Source: an uncultured delta proteobacterium
GTDB taxonomy: Bacteria > Myxococcota_A > Polyangia > Polyangiales > Polyangiaceae
Length of the DNA: 64,000 nucleotides
Direction: 5' to 3'
Assembly (NCBI GenBank): GCA_963763745.1
Contig: CAVXQJ010000001.1
Coordinates: forward strand, 130,431 to 194,430
Shown in pieces: positions 3,684 to 33,431 of the stretch. Position 1 is the first letter of the stretch. Every line of letters begins with the position of its first letter. The position numbers and the translations under genes were made by a program. The notes below the pieces were generated by a model. It had not been told where the DNA came from. It ran no database searches and saw nothing but the letters and a program-made list of their open reading frames with translations.

Positions 3684-3687
3684 GCGC

Positions 3688-4380: not shown

Positions 4381-4407
4381 GATTCGGCTGTCGCATTCTC
4401 GAAGCCG

Positions 4408-7191: not shown

Positions 7192-11188
<3,997 letters not shown>

Positions 11189-11245
11189 GTTTGCATCAGT
11201 GGATTGCGATGCCTCCGCACGGTCCCGAGCCGAAGTAGTCCGTCG

Positions 11246-13673
11246 TCACGTCCTATGGCAACGAGCGAATGTCACCACGTGAAACCTACCGCTCGGTCGT
11301 GGTCGTGCGATGCGAGGCGTCGGCTCGGGCGGCCTGCGTGGCGGTGATCCAGATCGGGATTGGTCGAGCGCGAACGGCGTGAATCGGCATGAACGGGAGG
11401 ATGTCGTCGATCGCGCGCGAGCCGCGGGCGATCGCGAGCGCCCACGTCGGCTCGGTCCGGTCGCGACGCGTCGATCGCACACGTCGGCATCGAAGCGAAC
11501 CGTGCGCGCCGCGGCTTCTTCGAGCGTGCCCGTCCGGGTCCCGTCGTCGTCGGGCGCGACGCGAACGTCGAACGTCTTGCGCCTCGCGCCCGCCGACGAT
11601 GATCTCGAACGAGCTGACGTCGACCCACGGCGCCGCGCGCACGCGAGTGCGCCCGAGTGGGCGCGCGAGCACGTCGACGTCACGTCGCCGCCGGGCCGCG
11701 CGCCTTCGACCTCGAGCTCGATGAGCGGTCCGCTCGTCACGGTCGCGTGCCCCTGCTTTGATCGCCGCGACGACCGCCGCGGTGTCGATCGGCCGGCTCA
11801 CGTCGCCCGCCGCCGACGCCGACGAACGCCATCGTCCGCGGGTAGCCGGCCCACTGATACTGAATGCGGTGCGAGTCGCTGCTGCCGGTCGCCGCGTAAC
11901 TGTGGCCCGCGTTCAGCAGCGCGAAGAAATCGCGCGAGCACGGTGTCGACCTTGTCGTGCGCGGCGCTCTCGTAGCCGTTGTAGACCTCGATCGCGTCGA
12001 AGTCCATGCGCATGCGCGGGCGGCAGCGCCGGCGCATCGGGCTTGTAGCCGAAGATCGTCGAAGTAGCCGATCGCCTGCGTGCAAGCGCGGGTGGTTGAA
12101 CGATGAGCGACGCGGTTCGGATCGCCGCGGTGCGCGGCGGCGAAGATTGCGCCGGTGTCGGTGCCGCGGAACGGCGGCGCGGTTGGCCGGTCGGGTACGG
12201 AAAGACGCCGAAGTGGCCGAAGCGCGGGTGTGAACGTGGTCACCTCGACCCCGGTGACGAACGCGAGCTGGCCGTCGAGGTTCTGCGATCTCGATCGCCG
12301 GGCCGTAGTCGCCGACGATGTTGTGCTCGCTCGGCACCGCGAAGTCGACGCCCGACGCGACGAGCGACAACACGCGATCCTCCGGCGTGACCGGCGAGTC
12401 GAAGCTCGGGCGCGCGTGCACGTGGAGATCGCAGCCGACCACGCCCGGCGTGGGGACGACGTGGCGGAGCGCGAGCTGCGCGCGAGGCGCTGTGGCCGCT
12501 GGTGATGGCGATCGTCTGCGCGTCGATGCTCCACTCGATGCCCTTCGTCGCCGCGACGCGGTAGCGGCCGGCGGGGAGCGGCGTCGTCAGTTCGCCGCGG
12601 AGCGCGTCGATGAGCGGGCCTGCGCCGGACGCGCGAAAATCGGGGCCGAAGCTGGGATCGAGCGTGCCCTCGATGCCGTGCACGACGACGCGCGCGGTGA
12701 GCGGCGCGCCGGTGTCGCCGTCGGTCACGCGCACGGGAGCTCGCCGCCGGGCGACACGTCGAGGCGGAGATCCCACTGCAAGCCCGGCGTGAAAAATGAT
12801 CGGCGCGCTCGTTCGCGACGCGCTCGCGCTCGCGTACCAACTCTTCACGCTCTCGGGCGCGCGCGAAATCGAAGCGACCTGCGACTTCGGTCCGACGCGC
12901 ATGTGCGGCGCGCCTTCGTCGTCGAGCCCGAAGACTTGCGACGAGCCCGGCGCGCCGGTCACGAGACCTTTCACGCGCTTCGTGTCGGCCTTCGCGCGAT
13001 CGAAGAGCACCGACCAAATCGCGCCGCCAGCGTTCGCGAGCGCGATCGTCATGCGCGCAGTTTCCACCGGCACGCTCGCGCGCATCGCCATCGTGTGCGC
13101 TTGGCCCGGCATCGACTCGATGGTGACGTGCATCATGTTGCCGTTCGCGACGACGCCGAGCGGGTGAACCACGTCGCCGAGCACGAGGTATTTTCCGTAC
13201 TCGCTCGACAAGTCCGCGAGCTCGCCGCGGCCGGAGAGAAACGCGCTGCGCCCGTCGAGCGGAACGCGCACGGCGATCGCGCGCGACGTCGCGCCCGCTT
13301 CGCTCGGTTCGATCGCGAGATCGATCGCGTCGCGTGCGGCGTCGATGGAGAGGTCCATCGCGCCGACGAGTTTTTCTCGACCATGCGCCGCCTGGCCGCT
13401 CGCGCGCAAATCGTCGAACGCGATCGCGTGAACGCCTTCGTCGTCTTCGATCACGAGCTCCGCGTCGATGGTGCGCGTGTGATCGTCCGACTCGATGCGG
13501 AGACGTCCGTCGCGGAAAATCGTGAAGTGCGCGTGCTTCGAGTCGAGCGTCACGCTCGGGCCGTTTCGCGTGCGAATGTCGCCGCACCGATGCATCTGAT
13601 GGACGAGCGCGACCGCCACGAGCACCGCGAGCGCGACGATCACGAACGGCTTCGAGCGGCTCTCCTCGGTCAT
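11246..13673 (-). pseudogene. PHP-domain metallohydrolase (CehA/McbA-like) with N-terminal signal anchor, frameshifted
   Basis: The N-terminal 400 aa (MTEESRSKPFVIVALAVLVAVALV...) are intact. The PHP motifs DLHVHARPSFDS, SEHN, AIEVYNG and GSSDSH sit in two other frames, and the 3' end is uncertain. Confidence 0.55.
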
Positions 13674-14134
13674 GGTGCGCGCGGCCCGCTCAGCGTCGCT
13701 TCACGCACGGACTTCTTCATCTCGATGTCGACGACGAGCTCGGGTCGTCCGCCGAGGAACGCGATCGCGTCTTTTCCCCATTCCACGATCAGGATTGAGC
13801 CCTCGGCGCGCCGTTCGCGCAAGCCGAGCCGTTCGATTTCGCGCTGCAGATCCCCGCCAAGGATGCGGTGCAGGTCGACGTGGAGCAGCGTGCCCTTCTT
13901 CGTTTCGTACTCTTGAACCAGGTTGAACGTCGGGCTCGTGATGCGCACGTCGTCCGGCACGCCGAGCGCGCGTGCGATGGCGCGCGCGAGAAACGTCTTG
14001 CCCGCGCCGAGGTCGCCGCTGAGGATCACGAGATCGCCGGCGCAGAGCTTCGCGCCAATCGCCGCACCGAGCTTCTGCGTGTCGCGTCGCGTACGAAGCT
14101 CGAGGTGCGGCATCGCGAGCCGTGACCTTATCAC
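13670..14134 (-). CDS. tsaE: tRNA threonylcarbamoyladenosine biosynthesis ATPase TsaE
   Basis: LSGDLGAGKTFLARAIARALGV Walker A and ITSPTFNLVQEY are signature TsaE/YjeE motifs; the start is possibly the Met at 14113. Confidence 0.85.
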   Translation of the reverse strand: MIRSRLAMPHLELRTRRDTQKLGAAIGAKLCAGDLVILSGDLGAGKTFLARAIARALGVPDDVRITSPTFNLVQEYETKKGTLLHVDLHRILGGDLQREIERLGLRERRAEGSILIVEWGKDAIAFLGGRPELVVDIEMKKSVREATLSGPRAP

Positions 14135-14230
14135 CTCACTTTCGAATCGGGTTGTTCGCGGGGTCGTCGATGGGCGCTTGAAACGAGCCGTGCGTCACGT
14201 CGATGTTCGCGCCCGCCGGAAGTCACACGC

Positions 14231-15313
14231 TCAGAATCGATAGAGCGCGCGCGCCATCGTGCCGCCGAGAACGATGGGTTCTGCTCCGCCGAACGCGCTC
14301 TCGACGTCGAACGCGACTTCGAGCTGCACGTGCTCGCCGAAACCGATCGACGCGAACGCGTCCGTGCGGAAGAGAAAACGCGATTCGAGATCTCCGCTCG
14401 TCACGAAGAAGCCGCCGATCGTGATCTCGGGGCCGACGAAGATGCGGAGCTTCGGCACGATCGGGATCGCCCAGCGCGCGCCGACATCGAGCACCACGGA
14501 GCCCGGTCCGTAGAACGCGCCGCCGAGATCCGCGCGCAGCGCGATGCCGCGGAAGAGCGACGGAAAACGCTCCGCGGAGAGCGGCGCGTATTCGAACGAG
14601 ATCGTCCCGTTGAAGGCGAACGTCGACAAACCATTTCCGCCCGTCGGATGCGCGAACGCTCCGTCGATTCCGAGACCGACGCCGAGCGCAAACGGCGCGT
14701 GGATTCCGTAGCCGCGATCGGGCTCGGGCGGCGGCGGCGGAGGCGGAGGCGGGGGCGGCGGCGGCGGCGGAGGTGGAGGCGGGGGCGGCGGCGGCGGCGG
14801 TTTGACGACCTCGTTCTCCCACGGGATCTCGGCGTTTGCGATTCCCTCGGGACGCAGCAGCAGCGCGAGCATCTCGGCGATCTGGTTGTTGGCCTTCTTT
14901 GGATCGATCTCGCGCGCGAGCGACTCGACGCGTCCACTGTCGACCTGACACGCTTCGACTTCGATTCGATACGAACCAGGAACCGCGCCCGGCCCGAGGT
15001 GCGGCGCGACGTGCCCGACGACGACCCACTGCGACGACGACGCGCGCCCCGCGGCTTGGTACTCCGCTTTCGTGTCGGCGACGCCGTCGGCGACGGCGAC
15101 TTGCGCGGTCGTCAGCTCGGAATCCGTTGCGGGCGTGAAGGCGCGCTGCATCACCGCGCCGAGCGTCGCGCTGCGCGCGGCGTCGAGCTGCTCTTTCGTC
15201 GCGTTGCCCCCAGACGCGGGCAAGAACGGCATCACCGCGACTTTGTCCGCGAGCGCGCTCGCGGCGATGAATGTGACGAACGAGAATGCGATGGCGGAGA
15301 AGAAGCGTTTCAT
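14231..15313 (-). CDS. secreted protein with a 27-residue polyproline linker and a C-terminal Gly-rich domain
   Basis: Signal peptide MKRFFSAIAFSFVTFIAASALA, then a P27 run, then a Gly/aromatic-rich C-terminal region reminiscent of beta-barrel-like domains. Confidence 0.6.
   Translation of the reverse strand: MKRFFSAIAFSFVTFIAASALADKVAVMPFLPASGGNATKEQLDAARSATLGAVMQRAFTPATDSELTTAQVAVADGVADTKAEYQAAGRASSSQWVVVGHVAPHLGPGAVPGSYRIEVEACQVDSGRVESLAREIDPKKANNQIAEMLALLLRPEGIANAEIPWENEVVKPPPPPPPPPPPPPPPPPPPPPPPPPEPDRGYGIHAPFALGVGLGIDGAFAHPTGGNGLSTFAFNGTISFEYAPLSAERFPSLFRGIALRADLGGAFYGPGSVVLDVGARWAIPIVPKLRIFVGPEITIGGFFVTSGDLESRFLFRTDAFASIGFGEHVQLEVAFDVESAFGGAEPIVLGGTMARALYRF
14724..14800. repeat. (GGC/GGN)n simple-sequence repeat, codes the polyproline run on the minus strand
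   Basis: ggcggcggcggaggcggaggcgggggcggcggc... runs for about 77 bp. Confidence 0.8.
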
Positions 15314-15357
15314 ACGCAGCTCTTCCGGCCGCTCGCGAACAATCACCTTGTAGCGCA

Positions 15358-16832
15358 TCAAGCCGGTTCCGGCTCGCCATCTTTCTCTTTCTCGGGCTCT
15401 TTCTCGTCGTCGTCTTCCTTGCCGGCTGGCTTCTTCGGAGCTTCCTCTTCCTCGGGCTCCGCTTCTTCTTCCTCTTCTTCTTCGGGCTCCGGCTCGGGCT
15501 CCGCTTCTGCCTTCTTCTTTTTCTTCTTCTTCTCTTCGGGGAGGCCGAGCTCCATCGCCTGCTTCGGGTTCTTGCGCGCCTCTTCCCAGAGCTTCGCGTA
15601 GAAGTACGAGACGATCGACCGCGCTGATCACGCCGATGAACTGGCTCGTCGACAAGTTGTACGGGTCCGCCTCGAACTGCGCGGGCTTGAGCGTCGACGA
15701 ACGCGACGATCGCCGGCAGGACCGACAACACGCGCGCCGCCGTGCGCACGCTCTTGTTCGGGATGCCCAGCGAGATGCCGAAGATGAACGCGAGCGCGAA
15801 GAGGAGAGCGCCGCCCGAGATGAGCAGGTAGCGATCCATCGCGGCGGCACGTTCCCGCGCTCTTCGTCGTCGCGAAAGAGCTCGAGCAGGAAACGCAAGA
15901 AGCCGTACGCGAACACGAACATGAAGAAAATCTGCCCGCGGAATTTCTGATGCTTCCGATGCCACGAGCAAAAGCAGAAGCAGCCCGAGACCGACGAGCG
16001 ACTCGTAGATCTGCGTCGGGTGCACCGGGAAGGAGTGCTCCTTCAGGTTCATGCACTGCGCGATGGTGTAGCCGGCCAGTTCTCTTGGCAGGCCTTCAAG
16101 TGGTGCGCGAAGGGGATGCTGCCGACGAGCGCGGAGCCTTTGTCGTCGTAGCCGAGCGTGCCGTCGGGCAGGTGCGGGAAGGTGCCGAGCTTCTGCAGCC
16201 AGCCTGGCGCGGTCGGCCGAGAGGCGCGTTCCGAAGTCGCAGCCGAAGAGGTAGCAACCGATGCGCGTGATGAGCAGACCCGACGCGAGGCTCGGCACCG
16301 CGACGTCCGCCCACGGGAGCAGCCGGATGTTCTGGCGCGAGAGATACAGCCAGCTCCCGAGGAAGCCGCCGATGAATCCGCCGTACGCGACGAGCCCGCC
16401 GCGCCGGAGCGCGAAGCAATCCGCGGTCGTGTCGAACTGGCTCGGAGTTCGTGAGGATGTAGAGGATGCGCGAGCCGACGAGCGCGGCGATCGCCGTGAT
16501 GACGTAGCAGTTCGCCATCGTCTCGTTCGGCAGGCCGTCGCGCGTCGCGAGGCCGAGCGTGAAGAACCAGCCGACGATGAGCGACGAGGCCGAGCATGAC
16601 GCCGTACGAATAAATCGGGAGCGCCTCGAGCTTGTACTCGGTCGTGCGCCAGTAGTACGCGCCCGCGATCGCGAAGATCGCGACGCCGAAGCCGGTGAAG
16701 CTCTCGTCGCGAATGCTGCTTTCGGCGAGACCACCCGCCGTAGAGCGCGCCGAGCACCGCGAGCGCGACGAGCGCCCACCAGAGCTTCAGCGGGCGGTTG
16801 GGAAGCGGGATCCGAAAAAGGATGGGATGCAT
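15358..16832 (-). pseudogene. lgt: prolipoprotein diacylglyceryl transferase Lgt with an acidic KE-rich C-terminal tail, split over at least 4 frames
   Basis: Lgt signatures are present but scattered across frames: N-terminal MHPILFRIPLP, the HPTQIYESLVGL signature, LIVGWFFTLGLATRDG, YGFLRFLLELFRDD and a tail YFYAKLWEEARKNPKQAMELGLPEEKKKKKKK. Confidence 0.7.
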
Positions 16833-16861
16833 GCGGGACGTCTCCCCGGATGTACTCGCAA

Positions 16862-17783
16862 GGCATGCCGATGTCGACTAAACCGCGGCTCGTGAAAGCA
16901 CGCATGACGCGCGTGCCTCTTCTCGTTTCTGCGCGATCTCGGCGCGGCGTGCGTGCCGCCGGGCAACAGCATCACGACGACGCGGGAACGCAACACGGCG
17001 CGACGCCGCCCCCACGGCGCCACGAGCTGTTCGCCCGCTCGACGGACGTCATGACGGCGCCCTTCGAGGACAACTTCGATCGCGCGCCGACGCCGCTCGT
17101 CATGCCCTCCGCCTGCTGCCTCGGTCTCCGCGTCCGCGTCCGCCTCCGCGCTCGCGTTCCCGCGATTCGGCGTCGCGCCCACCGCGACGCGCGAGCTCGC
17201 CGACGGCGATGGGCGAAGATCTCGGACCGAACTGGCACCAGGCGGCAAACGCAGCGCGTGGCACATCGAGAACGGCCGCCTCTGCGGTCAGACACGCGCA
17301 AAACCACGGCGTGTGGCTGAACCAAGATCCTCCCGGTCAACGCGCGCATCGAGTTCGACGCGATCACCGACTCGACCGACGGGCGACCTGAAGGCCGAGG
17401 TCTGGGGCGACGGCCAATCCGCACGCGACGGCGCATGTCGTACACGAACGCGACGAGCTACCTCACGATCCTCGGCGGCTGGAAGAACAAGTTCCACGTG
17501 CTCGCGCGCATCAACGAGCACGGCAACGATCGCAAGGAAATCAAGGTCGATCCGCGAGTCCGACGATCCGCAGCGAAAAACCGGTCGTCGCCGGCCAGAT
17601 CTACCACTTCAAAATCGAGCGGACCGACGGCCACACCGTCCATTGGTCCGTCGACGGCTCGAGCAGTACCTCACCTACGACGACCCGACGCCGCTCGTCG
17701 GCATGGGCCACGACCATTTCGGCTTCAACGATTGGGAAGTGAAAGTCTGCTTCGACAACGTGAAGGTCATGCCGCTCCCTTGA
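16862..17783 (+). pseudogene. secreted LamG/DUF1080-like protein, split over about 3 frames
   Basis: N-terminal MPMSTKPRLVKARMTRVPLL; the conserved-looking pieces AWHIENGRLCGQ, SYLTILGGWKNKFHVLARINEHGNDRKEIKVD, KPVVAGQIYHFKIERTDGHTVHWSVDG and YLTYDDPTPLVGMGHDHFGFNDWEVKVCFDNVKVMPL are in different frames. Confidence 0.45.
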
Positions 17784-17797
17784 GCTAATCTCGCACT

Positions 17798-18672
17798 GTG
17801 GAGTCGGCCGAGATCGAGACGCTCGTCAACGAGCTCGAGACGCGCGTCGATCGTTTGCGCGCGCTCTACGAGCAATACTTCATGGGCATCGAGCGCCTCG
17901 CGCCGGCGGTCGCCGCACAAAGACGTCGAGCGTCGCATCCAGGTCATGCGCAAAGAGCAGATCCGCAACACGGGCGTGCGCTTTCGCTTTCAGATGATCA
18001 TCCAGCGGTACAACACCTACCAAACGCATTGGCAGCGCATCTGCCGGCAGATCGAGGAAGGGACGTACAAGCGCGATCGACTGCGCGCCGAGCGGCGGTT
18101 CAAACCTGCGGCGGTCGACGCGGCACCCGAATCGATCGACGTGACGTTCTCGAGCGCGCCGCCGCCGATGGCGCCCGAGCCTCCGACGAAGCCCGTGCAA
18201 GTGATCCCGACGCTCGAGCTCGACGACATCGGCGATCTCGACGCCATCCTCAACGCACCCCCTTCGAAGCCACTGCCGAAAGCCCCCGCCCCCGCGCCTG
18301 CCGCGAAGCCGCTCCCCCCACGCCCCGTTTGGCGCAAAGTCGAAAAAGACCGCCCCCATCGCTGCCCCCGCCCCCGCTCCTGCGCCCGCACCCGTCCAAG
18401 CGCGTCCCGCTCAACCTCCCAAGCCTCCGCCTCCTCCCGTTCCAAAATCGCCCGCCGATCTCCCGGACACGCGCCTTCGGCAGCTCTACGCGCAGTACGT
18501 CCAAACGCGTCGCTCGCAGAACGAGTCGACCGCGGCGATCACGTACGACGCGCTCGCCAAGAGCCTCCGCGAGTCGAGCGCGAAATTACGCGAAAAACAC
18601 GGCAAATCCGTCGATTTCGAGGTCACCGTCAAAGACGGCAAGACCATCCTGAAACCCGTCGTGAAGGGCTAA
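17798..18672 (+). pseudogene. hypothetical protein with a Pro-rich central linker, frameshifted
   Basis: MESAEIETLVNELETRVDRLRALYEQYFMGIERL, then IRNTGVRFRFQMIIQRYNTYQTHWQRICRQIEEGTYKRDRLRAERRF, and a C-terminal TYDALAKSLRESSAKLREKHGKSVDFEVTVKDGKTILKPVVKG, in three frames. Confidence 0.4.
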
Positions 18673-18727
18673 GTTCGGATCCGAACTTTGGATTGTCTGG
18701 CCTGCAGCCCGTAGCCCGTAGCCCGAC

Positions 18728-18994
18728 CTAATGACTGAGGCGCGCGGCGACCCGTGCGGAGAGCGGCGTCTCGTCGTCTTCGCTGCAAAAGAGAATCGCG
18801 CAGTGCTGGAGATCGGCGCGGCGCATGCGCGTGCAGAGCTCGACGAGGTCCTCATCCGAGTCGACGATCGAGCCTTCGATGACTTGCGAAGTCTTCATGT
18901 CGTAGCGGCACTCGTCGAGCGCCACCCAGCGCCCGCGAAGAAGACCGTCTTGTTTTGCTTGCTGAAGGGAGAGACCGCGCATTCGTTTGCGCAC
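18728..18994 (-). CDS. small hypothetical protein (DUF5678-like?)
   Basis: 88-aa ORF containing GRWVALDECRYDMKTSQVIEGSIVDSDEDLVELCTRMRR; protein-like composition. Confidence 0.35.
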   Translation of the reverse strand: MRKRMRGLSLQQAKQDGLLRGRWVALDECRYDMKTSQVIEGSIVDSDEDLVELCTRMRRADLQHCAILFCSEDDETPLSARVAARLSH

Positions 18995-19053
18995 TACCTA
19001 CCCTCTCGGCGCGGGGGCGGTCAAGAAAGGGTGTGGTACGTTTCGCGTGCGCC

Positions 19054-20338
19054 ATGGACACCGCAGCTCAAGCAATCGAGCGCGCCGTTCGCGAAATTCC
19101 CTTTTATGCGCGCCACCGGGAGGCGCTGCCCGAGGGCGCGGCGCTCGCCGACGTCCTCAAGAACCTCCCGCTCTTGTTCAAGAAAGACGTGCGGCGCGCG
19201 CTGCCGAAGTCCTGGGTGCCCGCAGGGCGCGACGTGAAGGCCGACCTCGAGTCGGGCGAGCTCGAGATCGTCGAGACGAGCGGCTCGACCGATGACCGGC
19301 TCAACATTCTCTGGGACCGCGGGTGGTGGCTCAAACAAGAAGAGCGCGCGATGCGGACGAACGGGCGCGTCGCGCGGGCGATGGACGGCGAGCTCGGTCC
19401 GTACCGCGAAGCGATCTCTGACGACGCCGGTGTGCGGCGGCGGGCAGTGTCACATCGGCGATCTCTCGTACGAGGAGCGCCTCGAGGATCATCGCATCTT
19501 CCTCAACATGCGCGCCGACCCGACGTTCTGGCAGGACGCCGACAAGACGCGCATGCTCGACGAGCTCGAGAGGCACGAGACCATCGGTCTCGAAGCGGAC
19601 CCCGCGTATCTCGCGGCGCTCGCGCTTCACGCGGAGAAAATCTCGCGCCGCATCGCCGCGACGGGTTTCACGCAGCTCACCTACGCATCGACGACGCGCG
19701 CGCACCTGCGATCGATTCGCCGCGCATATGACGGTCCGCTCTTTCAGCTTTATGGCGCGAGCGAGGTGGGCGTGTTGTTCATGGAGGGCGAAGACGGTCT
19801 CCTTCACCATTCGCCTTTCACGACGCACGTCGAGCTTCTTCCGGCGCGCGTCGAGACGCCTGGTGCGAAGGACGTCGCGCTCGTCGTCGTGACGACGCTC
19901 GATCGCATCGCGCAGCCGCTCCTTCGGTTCGTCGTCGGCGATCTCGTGTCCGTCGATTGGCAGGGGCCGCGAAAATTCTCGAACGTCGCGCCGCTGCGCT
20001 CGATCGAAGGACGCGTGCAAGACGCGGTGGCTCGTCGTGACGGCGCCCTCGTGACGACCGGCGCGATCGATCGCGCGCTCGACGCGCTCTCCGCGGGCAT
20101 CGAGCAGTTTCAAGTGCGGCAAGCGACGCCCGACGCGGTGGAGGTGGACGTCGTCGCGCGATCGTCCGCGAGCGCTTCGCTCAACGACGACGTGCGCTCC
20201 GCGCTCGCGCCGCTGTTCGGCGATTTGACGATGACCGTGCGCGACGTGACCGCCGTGGCCGCGGAGCCGAGCGGGAAGTTCCGCGTGTGCAAGCGCGATT
20301 TTCCGATCGACTACGCGAATTCGTTCGAGATTGCATGA
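19054..20338 (+). CDS. CapK/PaaK-family adenylate-forming enzyme (phenylacetate-CoA ligase / F390 synthetase-like), one frameshift near 19420
   Basis: ETSGSTDDRLNILWDRGWW AMP-binding-type motif, a CGGGQCH motif and the downstream fold. The N-terminal 120 aa are in another frame; its stop overlaps the next gene's start (ATGA). Confidence 0.65.
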
Positions 20339-21552
20339 GCGGCGACGCGCTCGGACAGCGCGTTCGCCGCGAGTTCCCGCTGCTCGCGCAAAAGGTCGGG
20401 GACCTGCCGCTCGTGTTCTTGGATGCCGCGTCGACGACGCCGAAACCGCGCGTCGTCATCGACGCCGTGCGCGATCACTACGAGACGTCGCACCGCGAAC
20501 GTGCATCGCGGCGTTCACCCGCTCGGCGAGCTCGCGACGCAACGCTACGAAGCCGCGCGACTCGAGATCGCGAGCCTCATCGGCGCATCACCGAGCGAGA
20601 TCGTGTTTTGTCGCGGAACGACCGAGGCCATCAACTTGGTCGCGCACGGGCTCGAGCTCGGCTCGGACGACGAAGTGATTTTCCCGCGAGCGAGCACCAC
20701 GCGAATTTCCTTCCGTGGCGCGTGCGCGCAAAACCGATCATCTTGCCCATCGACGAAGGCGGCGTGCCGCGCTGGGAGATGGCCCCGAAGCTCTTCTCGC
20801 CGAAGACGCGCCTCCTCGCGTTCGCGCACGCGTCGAACGTGACGGGCGCGATCGCGCCGGTGCGCGAGATGGTGGAGCTCGCGCGTGCGCACGGCGTTCC
20901 CGTTCTCCTCGATGCGGCGCAGTCGCTCAGCCACGTGCCCATCGACGTGCGCACGCTCGGCGTGGATTTTCTCGCGGCGAGCTCGCACAAAGCGTTCGGG
21001 CCGAGCGGCGTCGGGATTCTCTACGCGAAAAAAGAAAAGCTCGGAAAGCTCGCGCTCTATCAAGTCGGCGGCGGGATGGTCGCGCACAACCGCGATGGCG
21101 GATCATGCGGACTTCGTTCCGCTCGACGCGCCTTTTCGTTTCGAAGCGGGCACGCCCGCGATCGAGGCGGCGATCGGATTCGGCGCCGCGGTGAGATTCC
21201 TCCGGAGCCTCGGGTGGGACGCGCTGCGCGCGCACGAGCACGCGCTCGCCGAGCGGCTCTTCGGGAAGCTCGGAGAAATTCCGGGCGTGAAGATCCTCGC
21301 GTCGCGATCGCTTTCGTCGCGAGCGCTCGCGCTCGCGACGTTCGTCGTCGACACGCCGGGCGTCGAGCAAGAGCACGTCGCGCGCATGCTCGCGGACAAC
21401 GCGGGCATCTGCGTGTCCGGCGGTTACCACTGCACGCACGTGCTTCACGCGCGAACGAAATTGAGGGCACCGTCCGCGCGAGCGCGCACGTCTACAACAC
21501 GTTCGAAGACGTCGACGTGCTCGTGAACGCCGTGCGCGAGATCGCGAGCTAA
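20335..21552 (+). pseudogene. cysteine desulfurase (SufS/CsdA-like class V aminotransferase), split over at least 4 frames
   Basis: FLDAASTTPKPRVVIDAV, NVHRGVHPLGELATQRYEAAR, AFAHASNVTGAIAPV, SSHKAFGPSGVGILY, SGGYHCTHVL and a C-terminal RASAHVYNTFEDVD all alternate between frames. Confidence 0.7.
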
Positions 21553-21553
21553 A

Positions 21554-22450
21554 TCAGCGCCGCCTGCGCGGGCGGCGAATCGCGATGACGCCCGCGGTCG
21601 GTGCGGGCTCGGGATCCATCGGTGGGAGTGCGAGCACGAGACGCTCGATGAGGAGCAAGTGATCGCGTAGCGCGCGCTCGGCGCGGAGCATGTCGAACGC
21701 TTTGTCGAACACGAGGATCAGCACGTAAATCGCGGCGAAGCTGCGCGCGACGACGCCGTAGTGCTCGGTGCGAACGTTGTAGGCGAGGTGGCCACCGCGG
21801 TGGAGCTGCGACGTCACGGGGAGCGCGCGAATCTCGGCGACGGCGCGCGTCGTCAGCGGCGAAGGTTGCCCCGGTGGCGGCGTCTGCGAGCTTCGCTCCT
21901 TGTCGTCGTCGTCGTCGTCGCCTGCGTCGAGCGCGGCGATGAGATCGCGGTGCGACTCGTGGATGCGCTCGACGCGTTTGCGCGCCTCCGCGTTGAGCGG
22001 GATGACGTTCGCTTTCGTCGTCGCGATGGGACCGGCGACCGCGCCCCACACGATCGGCGAGTGCGCGTCGATGACGAGCGCGTCGACCGCTTCGGCGCGC
22101 GTGGCGAGCGCTTCGAGCTCGCGACGCAGCGAGCCGCGATTCGATCTGCGACGAACGCGCTCTTCGTTTTTCTGAGCGCCTTCGATCGCGCTCGCGAACG
22201 CCGACGAAAGCATGTCGAGACGTCGCTGGCGCGCGTCGAGGTCGGGCGGCGTCTCGTCGAACTGCACGACGACGTCCGTGCGCTCGCCGAGCGCCGCGAT
22301 GAGCACGAGCGCCGACGGCGCAGTCGTCCCGCGAGGCTCGGCGCGCACGTCCGCGGCGTCCATCTCACGCGCGACGAGCTCGAGAAATCGCGAGAGAGCG
22401 TCCTCGCTCACTGGATGGTCGAAGCCTTCGCGCGGCGCATCAGCTTGGCG
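21554..22450 (-). CDS. hypothetical protein (Asp-rich patch)
   Basis: ORF downstream of the histidine-kinase gene with protein-like composition (ALVIDAHSPIVWGAVAGPIATTKANVIPLNAEARKRV...). The 5' boundary is uncertain because of the frameshifted REC domain upstream. Confidence 0.35.
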   Translation of the reverse strand, partial: RQADAPREGFDHPVSEDALSRFLELVAREMDAADVRAEPRGTTAPSALVLIAALGERTDVVVQFDETPPDLDARQRRLDMLSSAFASAIEGAQKNEERVRRRSNRGSLRRELEALATRAEAVDALVIDAHSPIVWGAVAGPIATTKANVIPLNAEARKRVERIHESHRDLIAALDAGDDDDDDKERSSQTPPPGQPSPLTTRAVAEIRALPVTSQLHRGGHLAYNVRTEHYGVVARSFAAIYVLILVFDKAFDMLRAERALRDHLLLIERLVLALPPMDPEPAPTAGVIAIRRPRRRR

Positions 22451-23975
22451 AGCTGGCGCATCTCGAACGGCTTCTCGAGGAAAGGCAGGCCGACGCGCTC
22501 GATGAACTCGAGCGTTCCGCCGGTGGGCGTGCCGCCCGTCATGAAGACGAAGCGGTCGCGAAGGTCGGGGATGCGTTTGCACGACTTGCTCGAACAGCTC
22601 GATTCCGGTCACGTCGGGCATCATGATATCGCAAAGCACGAGGTCGAAGCGATCGTCGTGTCGAGAGAAGCTCGATCGCTTGCTCGGCGGAGCTCGCGAG
22701 CTCGATGTCGGCCTCCGACCCGATTGCGCGGCGCAGCGAGGAAAGCAGCGTCAGCTCGTCGTCGATGATGAGCAGCCTCTGGCGCATCTCGGGAGCAGTC
22801 GTACCCGAGCCCGCTTCGCGAACGGAAGAGCGAGGTGTCGTCACGGGGAAGCGCAATCGGAACGTCGAGCCTACGCGCTCCTCGCTCTCCACGCTGATCA
22901 ATCCGTTCGACGCGTGCACCACGGCGAGGACCATCGTGAGCCCGAGCCCGGTCGCTACGTCGATCGGTTTGCGCGAATAGAACGGATCGAAGATGCGCGA
23001 TTGAACGGCCGGCCCCATCCCGCAACCGTTGTCGCTCACTTCGACGACGACCATTCCGTCGCTCGCGTCGAGGCGCGTGCGCACCACGATCTCGAGCGGC
23101 GTCGTGCTGCCCTCCGCGCTCGATTGAACGGCGTTGCGCAAGAGCGCGAGGAACGCTTGCGTGAGGCGCGTCGCGCTCGCTTCGATCAACGCGACGGACT
23201 CGTATTGCTTCACGATGCGGCCACGCTCGCCGAGCTCGGCGACCGCGGTGGCGCACGCCGTGTCGAGGAGAGACCGAACGTCCACCATGCCGAGCTGCGT
23301 GTCGTCGGTGCGCGAGCACTCGCGCAGAGAGCGCACGAGCCGCGCGATTCGCTCTGCGCCTTCGCGCGCGTCGGCGATCGCGCCGAGCATGTCCGACAAG
23401 AGGTCGTGCTGCTCGTCGTCGAACGACGGCGCGCACTCGCGCAAGAACGGAGGGAGCTCTTCCGCGAGAAAATTCAGGTTGGCGAGCACGTACGCGAGCG
23501 GGTTGTTGAGCTGATGCGAGATGCCCGCGCTGAGCGCTGCGATGAGCGCGAGTTGGTCCGTGCGCCGCGCGCGCTCCGACGACGTCGCGTCGCGCACGTG
23601 AACGACGAACCCTTCGCCGTCGGCGAGCGCAACGGGCGAAGCGGTCACCGCGAGGTGCACCACGCGCCCATCCGTGCGCAGCCACTTTTGCGAGTGCGTC
23701 TCGTTCGGCGGAGTCGCGTTCAACCACGCTTCGTAATCCACCGCGTCGACGACGACGCTCACCGGTCGCGCTGCGAGCTCGGCGAGAGAGCTCGGACCCA
23801 GCATCGCGAGGAGCTGCGCGTTCGCATAGAGGAACGCATCGTTCTCTACGACGCAGACGCCGCCGTCGACGTGGTCGAGCAGCTTCCCGAGATCGTCACC
23901 GAGCGCACGCGACAAGCCGGAGCGTGGCGGCGTCGTGGATCTTCGTTCGTCGAGCGGCTTCGGACCCCGCGCCAT
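22400..23975 (-). CDS. hybrid sensor histidine kinase/response regulator (PAS-HisKA-HATPase-REC), with the REC domain frameshifted
   Basis: H-box AALSAGISHQLNNPL and the ATPase G-boxes DNGCGM and GLGLTMV, then the REC domain RLLIIDDELTLLSSLRRAIG. The REC continuation LCDIMMPDVTGIELFE is in another frame. Confidence 0.7.
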
Positions 23976-24036
23976 CGTTACCTTTCCAAAATAGAAACGG
24001 CTCCAGCCATGATCAATTAAGCCGTAAACTCATGGA

Positions 24037-24642: not shown

Positions 24643-27600
24643 GACCAACGGGTGATGGAAAGGCTACCCTTCGGCACGTGACAGGTCTTCGCGTCGCGCT
24701 CATCGTTGGCGTCTTCGCGTCGGCTTGTGGAGGCGCGCGTCCCGCGGAGGACGCGAGTCGCGCCGCGCTTCGTACGCCCGCCTCCGCCGCGGCCGATCCC
24801 ACGCTCAAACCCGCGAGGCTCGTCCCGCTCCGCGCCGCGGACGACGAGCTCACGTTCGGCGCGGAGCCCGGCGGCGGAAAGCGCGCGCTCGTCGCGGGCG
24901 TACGCGTCGTCCGGTGGGCGGGAGGCGGCGTTCAAAGCGCGACCGATCCGCTCCCCGCACCGCCCACCGAGACGGTCGAAGTGCCCGAGCGACTCGGCGG
25001 TGGCTTCTTGTTCGCGATCGGCCCGAAGATTTATCGCGCCGACAAATGGCTCGCGCCGCTCCAGCTCCTCTACGTCGCGCCGATGAACCCGACGCACGTG
25101 TTCGTCGGTCTCGATCGCGCGTACGTGCGTTTGACGAACAACGCCTACGCGGCGTTCGACGCGCACACGGGCATGCCGATGGATCTCGGACCATGGCCGA
25201 CGAGCCCGGAGGTCACGCGTTACGTCGCGGCGGACGGATGGCGCGCGGTCGCCATCGCCGACATGCGCGGCGCCGTGGCGACGTTCGACGCAGGCGCGAA
25301 GTGGCAATCGCTCGCGCTTCCGATTCAACCGAGCGAGCTTCGTCTCGTCGGCGAATCGATCCTCGTGTCGGGCATGGATGGAAGCGGCGCGCTGCAGTCG
25401 TACGCGGTGCAACCGAACGGACAAATCGCGCACCTCGTGACCGACGAGAAAGCGCACGTGCACGCGAAGCCTCCGCCTCCGCCACCCGACGCGGAGAAAC
25501 AAGCGAGCAAAAATCCGCTCGTCGCCGCGGTGCTCGACGGCTGGCCGCTCGAAGGCGGCGCTGCGCTCGTCGCGCGCGACGGCGAGCTCCTCCGCATTCG
25601 CATCGCCGACGGAAACGTGCTCGACAGAGCGCCCGATGCGTTTCCGCTCAAGCCCGCGCGCTGCCACTCGATCTCGCTCACGCCGTCGAAGTCGCCCGTC
25701 GCGTTCGGATTCGTGTGCGGCGTGCCGCACGGCGCGACGGAAATCTACGCGTACGACCCACACGCTGGAAAGCTCGTGACGCTCCGTCACTTCGACGCGC
25801 CGCGCGCGGTGTTCTCGCCCGGCAACGGCACGCTCGTCGTGGAGGGCGCGTGCGACGAGGCCGCGGCGCCCGTCGACATCAAAAAGACCGAGCAGGGCTA
25901 CTGCCTCATGCACCGCGATCGCACGTTCGAAGACTTCGTCGTGAACGGCGACGTCGGAAGCGAGCGCGTCGTTCCGCTGACGGATGGTCGCACCGCGATC
26001 CTCTCGCCGCCCGTCGGAGATCTCTCGACGGCGCGCTTGACGATCTTCGACGGCAAACGCCCGACGACGATCCCGATCGTCTTCGACGACGTCGCAACGG
26101 CGAAGAAACCGACGCAAGCGCGCAAGCGCGACGATGACGACGACGACGACGACGAACGCACCACGCCCGACGACGACTCGATCATGACCGCGCTCCTCCG
26201 CTCGGGCACGTGGCTTCGCGGCGTCGAAGAGCGCACGCCCGGCGTTCTGTCCGCGTGGGTCGAGCACTCGGGTCACTACGTCGGCGTCGAAGTGAACGTG
26301 AACGGACACGCCAAGCACGGTCACTACATCGCGGAGCTCGGCACGGCGCTCGTGTCGGGTCGCTACGGTCTCGGATGGAGCGCGTCGCGACAAGGTTACG
26401 AAACGATCGACGGCGGGATGACGTGGACGGCGCTCGCGCTCCCCGAGCCGCTCGAGAGCGCGGGACCTGCCGCGGGCGCCGCATCGCACGGCTGCGGTCC
26501 GCTCGGCTGCGTGCTCGCGGGTTGGATTCGAGTCGGATGGACCGCGGACAACGACAAATCACCGCCCGATCTCACCAGCCAAACGCCCCGCTCCGTCGAC
26601 GTGCACGCGCCCGAGTCGCTCTCGCTCCGCTGCGAGCTCGCGCCCGGAAAAATCGCCCTCGCGAGCAACGACACGTCCGGCCCTGCGCAAAACAACTTCG
26701 GCTACGGCGGTTACTACGGCGGCTACTACGGTCGATACGGATACAACCGCACGCCCGTCTCGCAAGATTGGTCGCCGTTCTTCACGATCGACGCGCCCAA
26801 GCTCGGCGCGGACGATTTGGGTTTCAGTCGCGCGATCGACGACGCGTACGAGCGCAACGGCAACGATCGCAACTCGCAAGGACGCTTCTCGCTCGCACGC
26901 GTCGCGCGCCTCTACGCGTGGGGACCCAAGGGCCTCGATTGGGACTTGCGCGGTCGCTTCATGGTGCGCTTCACGTCGCCGTTCGAGAGCTCGACGCAGC
27001 TCCACGCGACGCAAACGATGACGACGCCCGAGTTCATCAAGGAAGCGACCAACTTCGCGATGGGCGGCGGAATGATCACGCACGCGATCCAGAACATCGC
27101 GATGATCCCCGGCGACGACGCGAGCCACGCGCTCCTCGTCATTCACCGCGCGAGCACGATCAACAACGAGCCCGTCGTGCTCGACATCGAAGCCGAGCGT
27201 CCGCCCGCGATCGTGCACCGCATCGATTCGCAATCGCTCGGTGACGTGGAGTCCGCCGTCCGCATGAGCGGGCACTGGTACATGGTCACGTCGGAGGGCA
27301 TGACGTCCGCGGTGTGGGAGCTCGAGAACGGCGTCGCGCGCGAAGTCGTGCGCATCCCGCGCGTGCCGAGCGAAGGCAACTCGCGCTCGTGGGCCATCCG
27401 CCTCGCGCGCCGCGCCGACAACCACATGCTCGCCGCGATGCTCGAAGGCGTCCCCGTCACCGAAGGCGCGGCGATCCCAGCGCACACGTGGTGGCCGCAG
27501 CTCTACGCGCTTCCGATCGACGCCGACGCGGGCACGCTGCAAGACCCCGAGCGCCTCGGCGCGGTGAACGGCGCGGGCAAGAGCATGCACGTCTGCGGAC

Positions 27601-27881
27601 CCGAAGACGGCGGCTGGGTGATCGACGGACGATGGCCCGGCGGCAACGTGTCGATCACGTCGGCGTCGGGCAACGCGACGATCTCGGGCTCGTCGAGCAG
27701 CGGCATGCTCGCGCGTTATCACGTGACTCAGGCGTCGCTCTGCATCGAAAAGATTTCGCTCACCGGCTACGGCGAAACGACCGGCGTCGGAACGCTCGGC
27801 AAAGTCGACAAGCCGCTCGTCTCTGTCGCGATGTTCGTCGACCGCGCGCGTCAATCGCTTCGGTGCGTCGGCAACCGCTAA
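24615..27881 (+). CDS. large hypothetical lipoprotein (~1090 aa) with a poly-Asp stretch and a Gly/Tyr-rich segment
   Basis: Lipobox LIVGVFASACGG; weak BNR/Asp-box-like motifs (DGGMTWTAL); a D9 run coded by (GAC)n near 26131; GYGGYYGGYYGRYGY. Confidence 0.6.
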   Translation: MAHRTSLSLRPTGDGKATLRHVTGLRVALIVGVFASACGGARPAEDASRAALRTPASAAADPTLKPARLVPLRAADDELTFGAEPGGGKRALVAGVRVVRWAGGGVQSATDPLPAPPTETVEVPERLGGGFLFAIGPKIYRADKWLAPLQLLYVAPMNPTHVFVGLDRAYVRLTNNAYAAFDAHTGMPMDLGPWPTSPEVTRYVAADGWRAVAIADMRGAVATFDAGAKWQSLALPIQPSELRLVGESILVSGMDGSGALQSYAVQPNGQIAHLVTDEKAHVHAKPPPPPPDAEKQASKNPLVAAVLDGWPLEGGAALVARDGELLRIRIADGNVLDRAPDAFPLKPARCHSISLTPSKSPVAFGFVCGVPHGATEIYAYDPHAGKLVTLRHFDAPRAVFSPGNGTLVVEGACDEAAAPVDIKKTEQGYCLMHRDRTFEDFVVNGDVGSERVVPLTDGRTAILSPPVGDLSTARLTIFDGKRPTTIPIVFDDVATAKKPTQARKRDDDDDDDDERTTPDDDSIMTALLRSGTWLRGVEERTPGVLSAWVEHSGHYVGVEVNVNGHAKHGHYIAELGTALVSGRYGLGWSASRQGYETIDGGMTWTALALPEPLESAGPAAGAASHGCGPLGCVLAGWIRVGWTADNDKSPPDLTSQTPRSVDVHAPESLSLRCELAPGKIALASNDTSGPAQNNFGYGGYYGGYYGRYGYNRTPVSQDWSPFFTIDAPKLGADDLGFSRAIDDAYERNGNDRNSQGRFSLARVARLYAWGPKGLDWDLRGRFMVRFTSPFESSTQLHATQTMTTPEFIKEATNFAMGGGMITHAIQNIAMIPGDDASHALLVIHRASTINNEPVVLDIEAERPPAIVHRIDSQSLGDVESAVRMSGHWYMVTSEGMTSAVWELENGVAREVVRIPRVPSEGNSRSWAIRLARRADNHMLAAMLEGVPVTEGAAIPAHTWWPQLYALPIDADAGTLQDPERLGAVNGAGKSMHVCGPEDGGWVIDGRWPGGNVSITSASGNATISGSSSSGMLARYHVTQASLCIEKISLTGYGETTGVGTLGKVDKPLVSVAMFVDRARQSLRCVGNR

Positions 27882-31471: not shown

Positions 31472-33431
31472 CTACTTTACACTCTTCGACGAGCCCTCCG
31501 TTCCGTTCTTGCGAACCACGTTCTTCACGTGCGAGTCCGTGCCGATCGGAAGCGCGCCGAGGAGTCGTTCGACGACGTCGGTCACGCTCTCACCGCCGAG
31601 GATGGCGAGCGGCGAGACGTTCTTCGAGAGCTCCGCTGCGAGCTGTTGATGACCGAGCGTCTTCAGCGTCGCGACGAGCTCGGGCGACATCGCGGCCATT
31701 TGATCTCGGAACGCGGCGACGCGCGCTTCCATCATCTTCTGCTCGAGCGCGTTCTCGCGCTCCTTCGCCGCCATGCGCGCCGCGTCCGCGACGCCGCTCA
31801 CCGCGGCTGCCGCTTCGGCAGTCGCGAGATCCACGAGTCGCTTCTTCTCGACGCGCGCTTGCTCGACGACCATCGTCGATGCTTGCTCTTCGCAAATCGT
31901 CCGGCGCACTTGCTCCTTCAGCTTCTCCGTCTCGAGACGGAGGAGCTCTTGCCGGCGCGTCACGTCCGCGACGATCGCGTTCTTCTGCGCGCCGCCGAGG
32001 AGGACCTGCACTTCGGGATCGAGGATGCGCACGTCGAGGACCTCGACGTCGTAGATCCACATTCCGTTTTCTTCGAAGTGACGGCCGGGACGCGGTTCGC
32101 CTTCGCGCTTCTCGCCGAGGATCGCGGTGCGGAGGATCTCCGTGCCGTTTTGGTAGAACGCCTCGATCGAGCACGCGCGCGCCGCGGCGCGCAGAAGCGA
32201 GCCCGCGTGGTCGCACAAGAGACCGACGTAGTCCTTCACGTTGAACCAACGCGCCGTCTCGGGACCGACGAACGACACGCGATACGACACGACGACCTCG
32301 ACCTCGTTGTGATCGCCCGTCTTCAATCGGAGGACGTCCGAGACTTTGTTCCCGTCGGTTTGGAGGAAGCACGTGCGCAGCGTGCGCTCCGACGATTTGG
32401 GTTTGCCCGTCGAGAGCTCGAGCACCTCGAGATCTTCGTCGAAGTCGAGGACGCGCGTTTGCGGACCGCGCACGACCTCGCGCGAGCTCCGCGCGGTGAC
32501 GAGCACGGCGAAGCTCGACGGGATGTACACGGCGAGCGAGTAGCCGTCGTTCGCGACGCCGATAGAGATCGATGCGCGCTTGATCGAGATCGCGCGCGAT
32601 GATTTGCACGCGCGTCGGGTCGGGCAAGTAGTTCACCGGACCGACGATCGTCGTGATGCGCCCCGTCGCGATGTCGCGCGCGTAAACGCCTTGTCGCTCG
32701 CCGATCGGAATCGCCGAGATCTCTGCGACGACTTCGACGTTCGGCGTTGGAAAGAAGAATCCTTCGCCCTCCGCGATGAACATGTCTTGTCCAGCTTCGT
32801 ATTCGCCCTCCGGAATTACGCCGCCCGCGGGTTGAACGAACGATTTTGCGACGCGCAGATGAAGACCCGCGCCTTTGCGCAAGCGACGCGCCTTGTGGAC
32901 GTATCCGCTCTGCCCGGCGAGGACCTCGATGCCGGTGATGGGAACATAGAAGCTCGTGTCTTCGCCGCGCACGATCATCTCCGTTCCGATCGGCTCCTCG
33001 TGGCCTTCGTCGTCGTAGACGCGCACGACGAGGTACTCGTCTTCGCGGAGCGCGTGACCGTCGACGACGCGCGCGCGCTGTCCGGGCCAGAGCGGAAACG
33101 ACGCGGGCCCGGGCACGACGACTTTGCGACCGGTGCGAAGCTCGACCGCGCTGTTGTTCCCTTTCGTCGGTTTGACGTTCGGATCCTTCGGCGGATTTTC
33201 GAGCACGATGTACTGCGACGACGTCGCGCTCGTGAACGTCGCGACGGCGCTGCCTTCATCGGCGCGCACGGGAACGAAGCGGCCGTGCTGGTAGTCGACG
33301 AGGCGTTCGGTGTTCGACAGGCTGATCTTCGTCGGACCCACGTAGAGGACGATGTCGCCCTTCGTGAGATCCTGGACGTAGGCGTATTCGTTCGAGGCCA
33401 CGAGGATGTCGCGTTCGCGTGTGTCGGTCAT
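31472..33431 (-). CDS. major vault protein (MVP) homolog, with a single frameshift near 32500-32560
   Basis: The N-terminal MVP repeats (FPLWPGQ vs eukaryotic FPLYPGE; IPIGERQGVYARDIATGRITTIVGPVNY vs [28 protein letters not shown]) are in ORF 31590..33467. The shoulder and cap-helix regions (VEVVVSYRVSF, NVKDYVGLLCDHAGSLL, NGMWIYDVEVLDVRILDPEVQVLLGGAQKNAIV) are in ORF 31472..32530. Confidence 0.8.

Follow-up and report, generated by a model that had tools for sequence, protein, structure and literature searches.

A conserved gene pair for a PaaK-fold adenylating enzyme and a SufS-like cysteine desulfurase, and its possible role in ATP-dependent sulfur insertion

The window analyzed here, a 64,000-nucleotide stretch of a contig from an uncultured Polyangiaceae bacterium (GenBank: CAVXQJ010000001.1), carries two overlapping forward-strand genes that are predicted to encode an adenylate-forming (ANL) enzyme of the PaaK fold and a SufS/CsdA-like type II cysteine desulfurase. 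The upstream ANL gene spans positions 19054–20338, from the ATG at 19054 to the TGA at 20336–20338, and the desulfurase gene spans 20335–21552 (ATG at 20335, TAA at 21550–21552), in a region of 65–68% G+C. The stop codon of the first gene shares bases with the start codon of the second in an ATGA at 20335–20338, an overlap described in the initial annotation of this DNA and confirmed by the sequence and a three-frame translation. Once the frame breaks discussed below are corrected, the genes encode proteins of 427 and 405 amino acids, which match intact homologues end to end at 82% identity; the intact ANL homologues are 430–450 residues long.

The label first given to the upstream gene, CapK/F390-synthetase-like, holds at the level of the PaaK fold, while no curated CapK, PaaK, or F390 threshold is reached. 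The PaaK equivalog models score 13.4 bits (TIGR02155, cut-off 646.3) and 19.4 bits (NF041878, cut-off 700), and the F390 model TIGR02304 scores 21.8 bits against a cut-off of 251.9, with TIGR03335 unreported for the window protein. CapK_C (PF27533) appears solely as a "weak" precomputed match on some homologues and is absent from the local Pfam scan, in which the ANL protein had no match of any kind. Its NCBIfam matches are weak (E ~1e-7) and fall on DVU_1553, FlxY, and PaaK-type ligases, along with F390-related models, and a profile of the ANL family reaches the PaaK sequences of the Protein Data Bank (PDB) only at E ~1e-6. At E up to 0.001, roughly 4000 homologues are matched. For the AlphaFold2 model of P0001, an 82%-identical orthologue (predicted local distance difference test (pLDDT) of 86, predicted template-modeling score of 0.87), the best Foldseek matches were AjiA1, NatL2, BT_0428, PaaK1, and ClxA (E 1e-16 to 1e-18, template-modeling scores of 0.6–0.7). 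Identity to these structures is 14–20%. The model thus predicts a two-domain ANL fold, closest to PaaK-family structures.

Residue conservation was counted throughout in 99 paired ANL proteins and 80 full-length partner desulfurases. Like the five structural matches, the ANL protein combines the two-domain fold with a P-loop, a YGxTE motif, a hinge, and a C-terminal Lys motif, which read TSGST, YGASE, EGRVQD, and SGKFR in the window; the ANL motif RFVVGD is present as well. These core motifs (P-loop, YGxTE, hinge GRxxD, C-terminal SGK) are kept in 95–99 of the 99 homologues, apart from one subclade in which the Lys is Arg. The P-loop (T75-S-G-S-T79, motif A3) lies at 19276–19290 on the forward strand, as do the other motifs; Thr75 and Gly77 occur in at least 96 of 99 proteins, and ETSGST is invariant in the Polyangiales clade. 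The C-terminal motif A10 (S406-G-K408, 20270–20278) is similarly conserved, with Ser406 and Gly407 in at least 96/99 and SGKFR invariant among the Polyangiales.

Where the PaaK-family AMP-ligases carry GYG(L/M)FTGGLG, the window protein has a Cys-x4-Cys-His loop instead, C127-GGGQ-C132-H133 (19433–19453, forward strand), which is a putative persulfide acceptor or relay. It aligns with the GYGMFTGGLG segment of BT_0428, a segment that we take, from the PaaK1 structure, to help form the acyl pocket. Cys132 is retained in every one of the 99 paired proteins and His133 in 97. In the P0001 model, pLDDT falls below 50 between the two Cys residues of the loop, suggesting that the loop is flexible in the model. 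We know of no case in which PaaK1, BT_0428, NatL2, AjiA1, or ClxA is paired with a desulfurase.

The downstream protein contains a full-length Aminotran_5 domain (E 1e-108, residues 27–396) and the residues expected of a type II (group II) cysteine desulfurase, to which class it is assigned on this sequence evidence. Lys219, the predicted pyridoxal phosphate (PLP)-binding residue (SSHK, 20989–20991), and Cys366, the predicted catalytic, persulfide-forming residue (GGYHCTH, 21431–21433; both forward strand), are invariant in all 80 partners, together with Glu120, His121, Asn124, Arg381, and Ser383; His368 occurs in 78. Given this invariance, the partners are therefore expected to be persulfide-forming desulfurases rather than simple lyases, and the window enzyme carries every residue needed to form an enzyme-bound persulfide from L-cysteine. 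It is 39–41% identical to three solved SufS structures (E 1e-79 to 1e-86), in which the active-site motif reads GHHC(A/T)QP as opposed to GG(Y/F)HC(A/T)H here.

Despite this resemblance, housekeeping SufS was rejected as an identity for the enzyme. SufS TIGR01979 is the best NCBIfam model and is reached with 383 bits against a cut-off of 475; the nine further partner desulfurases tested all scored 370–409 bits, likewise under the cut-off, and PRK09295 (SufS) gave 300 bits versus 661. The CsdA models are no closer (TIGR03392, 303.5 bits versus 493.6; PRK10874, 304.4 versus 607). The family 2A encapsulin cargo desulfurase model NF041166 scores 377 bits against 800 and aligns over profile positions 228–622 of 623, the 405-residue enzyme being devoid of the ~225-residue N-terminal cargo-loading extension. 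In a neighbor-joining tree, the main clade of partner desulfurases is monophyletic and stands apart from the three canonical SufS sequences, while the most distant partners branch outside both. The initial annotation had placed the pair outside the usual suf operon context, and this was borne out: sufE and sufBCD are absent from the scanned open reading frames (ORFs) of the window and from the related neighborhoods, and no Suf, NifU, or SufE Pfam family was found in the gene calls of ~16 related loci, three annotated plasmid regions, or the scanned window ORFs. The sufBCD and SufE/SufU genes that accompany SufS proper are thus missing both at the locus and in the tables of related loci.

Conservation of the neighborhood, which had been suggested as a check on the pairing, was strongly borne out. 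We counted as informative those loci in which the ANL gene is complete at its 3′ end and is followed by 400 bp or more of sequence; in 90 of 90, the desulfurase gene comes next, directly 3′ and in the same orientation. Scanning a single genome per species (25 relatives, all from metagenome-assembled genomes (MAGs) of Myxococcota, plus one 27%-identical outlier) gave 23/23 paired; individual look-ups gave 10/10, including homologues at 44% and 41% identity, one from a Planctomycetota MAG at 39%, a 542-residue form at 31%, and a 408-residue form at 34%; and a scan of metagenomes that started from a more distant clade, some relatives of which are labeled Thermoanaerobaculaceae (Acidobacteriota), gave 54/54, at a locus G+C content of 0.45–0.73. 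The remaining three (3/3) are plasmids of cultured bacteria, namely Rhizobium binae p6, Klebsiella pneumoniae pC696_1, and Vibrio coralliilyticus pOCN014. The plasmid-borne ANL genes share 24–27% identity with that of the window and carry the annotation "phenylacetate--CoA ligase family protein"; the gene after each is annotated as "aminotransferase class V-fold PLP-dependent enzyme". A match in Nonomuraea (H5) lies in a part of its record that has no annotation. Searches begun from the desulfurase also recover the pair, with different flanks. The paired loci, which come from Polyangiales MAGs, the Planctomycetota MAG, metagenome contigs, and the three plasmids, range in G+C content from 0.45 to 0.74, and the pair spans at least four phyla. 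Between clades, only the pair is common and the flanking genes are unrelated. Adjacency kept in all informative loci across several phyla points to a functional unit; the two genes are a conserved pair, predicted to be co-transcribed and probably translationally coupled, and their functional coupling is strongly supported by these sequence comparisons.

A trivial explanation would be that a housekeeping SufS gene came to lie beside a CapK-like capsule gene or a coenzyme A (CoA)-ligase gene through inherited synteny, with no functional link. Within the Polyangiales, the wider region is indeed syntenic (TsaE, Lgt, DUF6250), as this would predict. However, the pair persists when all flanks differ, across phyla and on plasmids; the desulfurase falls under the SufS cut-off; and none of the loci examined has adjacent suf genes. 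In relatives, the enzyme is found neither with housekeeping SufS nor with sufBCD, the outcome that the initial annotation had named as refuting its reading. We regard the absence of any functional link as the least probable of the explanations considered, to the point of being negligible. The capsule assignment was rejected separately. No glycosyltransferase or polysaccharide genes lie beside the pair in the window or in the closest intact locus, L001, no curated model matches, and the true CapK-type relative L027 (27% identity), which sits in a glycosyltransferase locus, has neither the Cys loop nor a desulfurase. A second negative control, P0142 (31% identity), likewise lacks both the loop and the desulfurase, and the gene after it is instead of the Peptidase_S51 family.

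Both genes are interrupted in the deposited sequence. A DNA alignment against three orthologous loci places one 1-bp insertion in the ANL gene at ~19416–19417, and a 1-bp insertion at ~20491 and 1-bp deletions at ~20685 and ~21463 in the desulfurase gene; a further +1 shift near 21090–21100 is visible in the frame translations of the latter. The pair could accordingly be read as decaying pseudogenes with genuine frameshifts, considering that five single-base indels (one in the ANL gene, four in the desulfurase gene) fall within 2.5 kb and that the deposited assembly itself has a shortened call. This call, P0021, a 302-residue protein of 100% identity in a public collection, indicates that the indels are in the deposit. 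Against decay, a search of the window with the translated genes of L001 (82% protein identity) shows frame switches in many unrelated, essential-looking genes over ~9–24 kb, including Lgt, the DUF6250 protein, a 313-residue gene, and a 136-residue response regulator that is spread over three frames; between the indels the proteins keep their 82% identity to intact orthologues, and neither corrected reading frame contains an internal stop codon. The contigs of sister assemblies bear nanopore-style names, and the pattern of breaks at 9000–24000 fits long-read indel errors, with the window being free of them at 24.6–29.8 kb. Decay is thus very improbable. The frameshifts are most likely assembly errors, and the genes are treated as functional on this basis.

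The same errors may also mislead gene calling. Frame 1 is open across the desulfurase, from 20287 to 21552, despite two internal out-of-frame segments, so an automatic gene caller could emit a protein of plausible length with scrambled internal segments. An 869-residue ORF at 14223–16832 (reverse strand) is a composite of a 357-residue gene and Lgt. P0259, an apparent ANL–desulfurase "fusion" of 755 residues, looks, judging from its sequence, like the product of frameshifts that let one frame read through both overlapping genes in a different error-prone assembly, and not like a natural fusion.

Both enzymes look catalytically competent from their conserved residues, and together these residues and the analogies drawn below suggest thiocarboxylate or sulfur-transfer chemistry, as the initial annotation had supposed. 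In the mechanism that we propose, the ANL enzyme would activate a carboxylic acid to the acyl-AMP, and the Cys366 persulfide of the desulfurase would pass its sulfane sulfur to Cys132 of the ANL enzyme, which would replace SufE, SufU, or CsdE as the dedicated acceptor. The Cys132 persulfide would then attack the acyl-adenylate, and reductive release would yield a thiocarboxylate or a derived product. We put the chance that the pair is a self-contained cassette of this kind, for the ATP-dependent insertion of sulfur, at a little short of even. The surroundings in the window's clade (TsaE, Lgt, a two-component system, a PNPOx-like gene, and an OPT transporter) have no biosynthetic character, and because the pair lies in such a housekeeping region of this Polyangiales genome, a common metabolite is argued to be the acid substrate.

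Several observations weigh against this mechanism or qualify the evidence for the pairing. Cys127 is missing in a subclade that still carries the desulfurase and is thus dispensable, and the subclade with Arg for the A10 lysine also retains its desulfurase. The 4-bp overlap (A/G/TTGA) can be drawn in 57 related loci, by a start-codon rule that itself favors overlaps; independent gene calls give it in at least 11 loci (L001, L029, L030, L031, L032, L033, L034, L035, L110/L111, and the Klebsiella and Rhizobium plasmids). The identity matrices of the ANL proteins and the desulfurases correlate closely (r = 0.91, Mantel 0/2000), which speaks for co-divergence of the two proteins, but the correlation partly reflects species phylogeny. 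The metagenome loci were fetched with a peptide pattern containing the first Cys and hence provide no test of the association between Cys loop and desulfurase, which for this reason rests on the two negative controls. Lastly, the most distant partner desulfurases, those of L110, L112, and the plasmids, are no closer to the window enzyme than canonical SufS is, and the ANL–desulfurase pairing may for this reason have arisen more than once.

The Cys loop also permits a different role for the desulfurase. The ANL enzyme might itself need sulfur, its Cys/His loop (with a CPCG motif in some clades) binding an iron–sulfur (Fe-S) cluster or a metal and the desulfurase acting as a maturation factor; or it might be a SufE-like activator or acceptor for another pathway, with no thioacid chemistry in either case. 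The non-myxobacterial clade, with C-x4-C-H and CPCG, offers four possible ligands, and a partner acceptor is a known requirement of type II desulfurases. In nine Polyangiaceae loci (L012, L014, L016, L017, L018, L020, L021, L023, and L025), a gene for an RlhA-like protein with Peptidase_U32 and DUF3656 domains (ORFs of ~840–910 residues; e.g., L017 7102–9612) immediately precedes the ANL gene in the same orientation, and U32 proteins are Fe-S enzymes. On the other hand, the window's clade has no CPCG and one subclade has no Cys127, leaving one universal Cys and one universal His, too few for a cluster. The adenylation motifs are conserved, implying that catalysis is retained, and a private desulfurase for the cofactor of one enzyme would be unusual across four phyla. 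The small number of universal ligands (one Cys, one His) makes this a weaker rival than the conjugate route considered next, and we judge it decidedly unlikely.

In other lineages, the pair travels with genes for cysteine supply (CBS/CGL/Rrf2, CysE), with S51/C26 hydrolases, or with nonribosomal peptide synthetase (NRPS)- or LanB-like genes. A Peptidase_S51-like gene occurs in 30 non-myxobacterial loci, either just past the desulfurase or divergent from the ANL gene; examples are L034 (10525–11205), L109 (7323–7982), L044, L050, L051, L054, L056, L058, L060, and L061, and further S51-like loci include L064, L066, L069, L072, L073, L085, and others. In L109, the ANL gene that it follows is without both the Cys loop and a desulfurase. 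L112 has RimK and Peptidase_C26/GATase genes upstream of the pair, the relative P0252 is fused to a GATase1 domain, and another relative is fused to an alpha/beta hydrolase. The Peptidase S51 and C26 families are reported to have the fold of class-I amidotransferases. In 16 loci (L039, L040, L041, L042, L044, L046, L049, L052, L053, L054, L056, L057, L061, L069, L078, and L098), a PALP (CysK/CBS-like) gene stands upstream of the ANL gene, directly so in 14 according to ORF clustering. Also nearby is a gene of the Cys_Met_Meta_PP family (cystathionine-gamma-lyase-like), and seven loci have an Rrf2 regulator close by. By their family matches, the PALP, Cys_Met_Meta_PP, and Rrf2 genes indicate a cysteine or transsulfuration context. 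The amidotransferase-type or hydrolase partners and the recurring cysteine-supply genes fit the logic of a nucleophile-donor partner, and neither proves it.

These accessory genes bring in the main rival, in which conjugated cysteine would donate the sulfur. The ANL enzyme would couple the activated acyl group with L-cysteine or a gamma-Glu/Asp-Cys peptide, the PLP enzyme would cleave the C–S bond as a lyase to leave the sulfur on the acyl group, and S51/C26 hydrolases would trim the carrier amino acid. Such conjugate–lyase logic operates in YcfA/YcfC (6-thioguanine), EgtC/EgtE (ergothioneine), and GGP1/SUR1 (glucosinolates). In its favor are the hydrolases, of families reported to have the class-I amidotransferase fold, that accompany the pair in many loci (S51 in the 30 loci, C26 with RimK in L112), the adjoining cysteine-supply genes, and the PaaK-family AMP-ligases AjiA1, NatL2, and ClxA, which according to their PDB titles were solved with bound aryl acids and adenylates and which hand the adenylate to nucleophiles other than CoA. 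Yet a plain C–S lyase would have no need of Cys366, which is present in 80/80 partners, and the route leaves the invariant Cys132 of the ANL enzyme without a role. In the window's clade, no S51 or C26 gene was found within 10 kb of the pair. The EgtE model scores 100 bits versus 400, and an S-acyl-cysteine quickly rearranges to the N-acyl-cysteine. We view the conjugate route as unlikely, though it is the leading alternative.

Direct persulfide transfer, the mechanism that we prefer, can be set against described systems, the nearest of which is the PtmA3/PtmU4 (TaaJ/TaaI) thioacid cassette. That cassette is a portable two-gene unit found in many genomes. Its acid first becomes a CoA thioester, after which a type III CoA-transferase draws sulfur from the thiocarboxylate of a sulfur-carrier protein that primary-metabolism enzymes load; the desulfurase belongs to primary metabolism and has its gene elsewhere (PMC6006322; bioRxiv 10.1101/2024.10.16.618611). 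In both cases, a member of the ANL superfamily uses ATP to activate a carboxylate, and desulfurase-derived sulfur ends up in a thiocarboxylic acid, as is proposed here. They differ in that the desulfurase itself is the obligate partner in our pair and the ANL enzyme is PaaK-type with a putative active-site Cys. The adjacent two-domain type III CoA-transferase of the PtmA3/PtmU4-type cassette is missing, and neither a CoA-transferase nor a sulfur-carrier protein (by Pfam family or product name) appears in the neighborhood tables of the related loci and plasmids.

The desulfurase side of the pair resembles the SufS–SufE/SufU and CsdA–CsdE/TcdA systems, with a type II enzyme of the same catalytic residues, ~40% identity to solved SufS, and an adjoining Cys-bearing partner. 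The CsdA system even includes an ATP-using partner, the E1-like TcdA. Apart from scoring below the curated cut-offs, our pair departs from these systems in having no SufBCD, SufE, SufU, or CsdE nearby and in having as its partner an ANL adenylating enzyme rather than a protein of the SufE or E1 fold. The proposed combination of an adenylate and a Cys persulfide is the logic of ThiI and MnmA (PP-loop) and of MoeZ, Uba4, and MOCS3 (E1 plus rhodanese), in which ATP is used to make an adenylate at an oxygen-bearing carbon and a protein Cys persulfide, charged by a cysteine desulfurase, displaces AMP. Those enzymes act on tRNA bases or protein C-termini and normally draw on housekeeping IscS/NFS1, whereas the desulfurase here is private and probably translationally coupled, and the ANL adenylating fold is unrelated to theirs.

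Some of the more distant loci merit description in their own right. The pairs of L114 (K. pneumoniae pC696_1, CP067531, 93775–106986) and L115 (V. coralliilyticus pOCN014, NZ_CP009266, 199327–220553) each lie inside an uncharacterized NRPS(-polyketide synthase) cluster. Both clusters encode a DUF6817 protein, a TauD-family dioxygenase, a serine O-acetyltransferase (CysE), and a phosphopantetheinyl transferase, and that of L115 has an additional cysteine--tRNA ligase gene (cysS), a second copy that may serve self-resistance or cysteine supply. In L110, two 807-residue LanB N-terminal (glutamylation-type) proteins (3472–5895 and 8869–11292) flank a 542-residue ANL protein and its desulfurase, with a 101-residue ORF near the pair, which may represent a peptide-modification context. 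L113 (R. binae p6, NZ_CP071610, 200042–213079) is a mobile, defense-like neighborhood: an HNH endonuclease, a large AAA ATPase, and an "ABC-three component system" gene stand beside the pair, and the region adjoins a transposase and an integrase.

A third conserved gene was sought in the Polyangiales by all-against-all ORF clustering, which is noisy owing to shadow ORFs at high GC. The search returned solely a ~1000–1170-residue downstream protein, the U32 protein (in one subclade), and 3-deoxy-D-arabino-heptulosonate 7-phosphate synthases as recurrent, and their recurrence was judged to be synteny. The first of these, a protein of 1064–1101 residues with no significant Pfam match, is encoded at 24687–27878 (forward strand) in the window and at 15733–18948 in L001, 14801–18034 in L002, and 9234–12539 in L031. 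Its gene lies on the same strand, 0–4 kb 3′ of the pair, in several Polyangiales-type loci, and in L031 it begins 10 bp past the desulfurase stop codon. The synthases, of two classes, lie beside or near the pair in L002 (PF00793) and in L028, L029, and L035 (PF01474).

Four genes that flank the pair in the window are on the reverse strand. Divergent from it is a conserved 84-residue protein of unassigned function (18731–18982), 88% identical to the product of an L001 gene. It was considered as a sulfur carrier and rejected, as it has no C-terminal GG and no Pfam match, and its gene is separated from the pair by other genes in L002, L028, L029, and L035; the gene is probably merely syntenic. 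Downstream of the pair are a 278-residue protein of unassigned function (21578–22411), a response regulator (22411–22784), and a histidine kinase (22989–23885). The last two had been annotated as one hybrid histidine kinase, which is probably a frameshift artifact, each being its own gene in the intact orthologous locus L001. Farther away, an ORF at 31475–32632 (reverse strand) matches the major-vault-protein (MVP) shoulder domain PF11978 (E 1e-26) and Vault_3 (PF17795), identifying it by domain content as a bacterial MVP-like gene, which is probably longer than the ORF.

Our work raises the question of what such a pair would add to known sulfur chemistry. Few thiocarboxylic-acid natural products are known, with nine counted as fully characterized (PMC10915793), and the characterized thioacid route that we found relies on an acyl-CoA synthetase, a CoA-transferase, and sulfur-carrier-protein machinery (PMC6006322; bioRxiv 10.1101/2024.10.16.618611). 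We did not find a published description of a PaaK-type ligase paired with a SufS-type desulfurase, although literature coverage was incomplete and one could have been missed. We tentatively suggest, as a possibility rather than an expectation, that the pair is a widespread, undescribed cassette in which a PaaK-type enzyme takes persulfide sulfur directly from its own SufS-type desulfurase onto an active-site Cys and turns an acyl-adenylate into a thiocarboxylate, with neither CoA nor a CoA-transferase nor a sulfur-carrier protein taking part. It would serve the Polyangiales as a core pair for a sulfur-containing primary metabolite or cofactor, and the Klebsiella and Vibrio plasmids for nonribosomal peptide tailoring. 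Because the module is present on plasmids of the culturable K. pneumoniae, V. coralliilyticus, and R. binae, the hypothesis is directly testable.

Should the link prove to be only cofactor maturation or a conjugate–lyase route, the pair would still constitute an uncharacterized conserved system. If direct transfer is correct, it would represent a simpler, two-gene route for placing sulfur onto a carboxyl carbon and would add a new acceptor class for SufS-like enzymes beside SufE, SufU, and CsdE. In that event, the pair would also offer a means of mining the genomes of at least four phyla for sulfur-containing metabolites.

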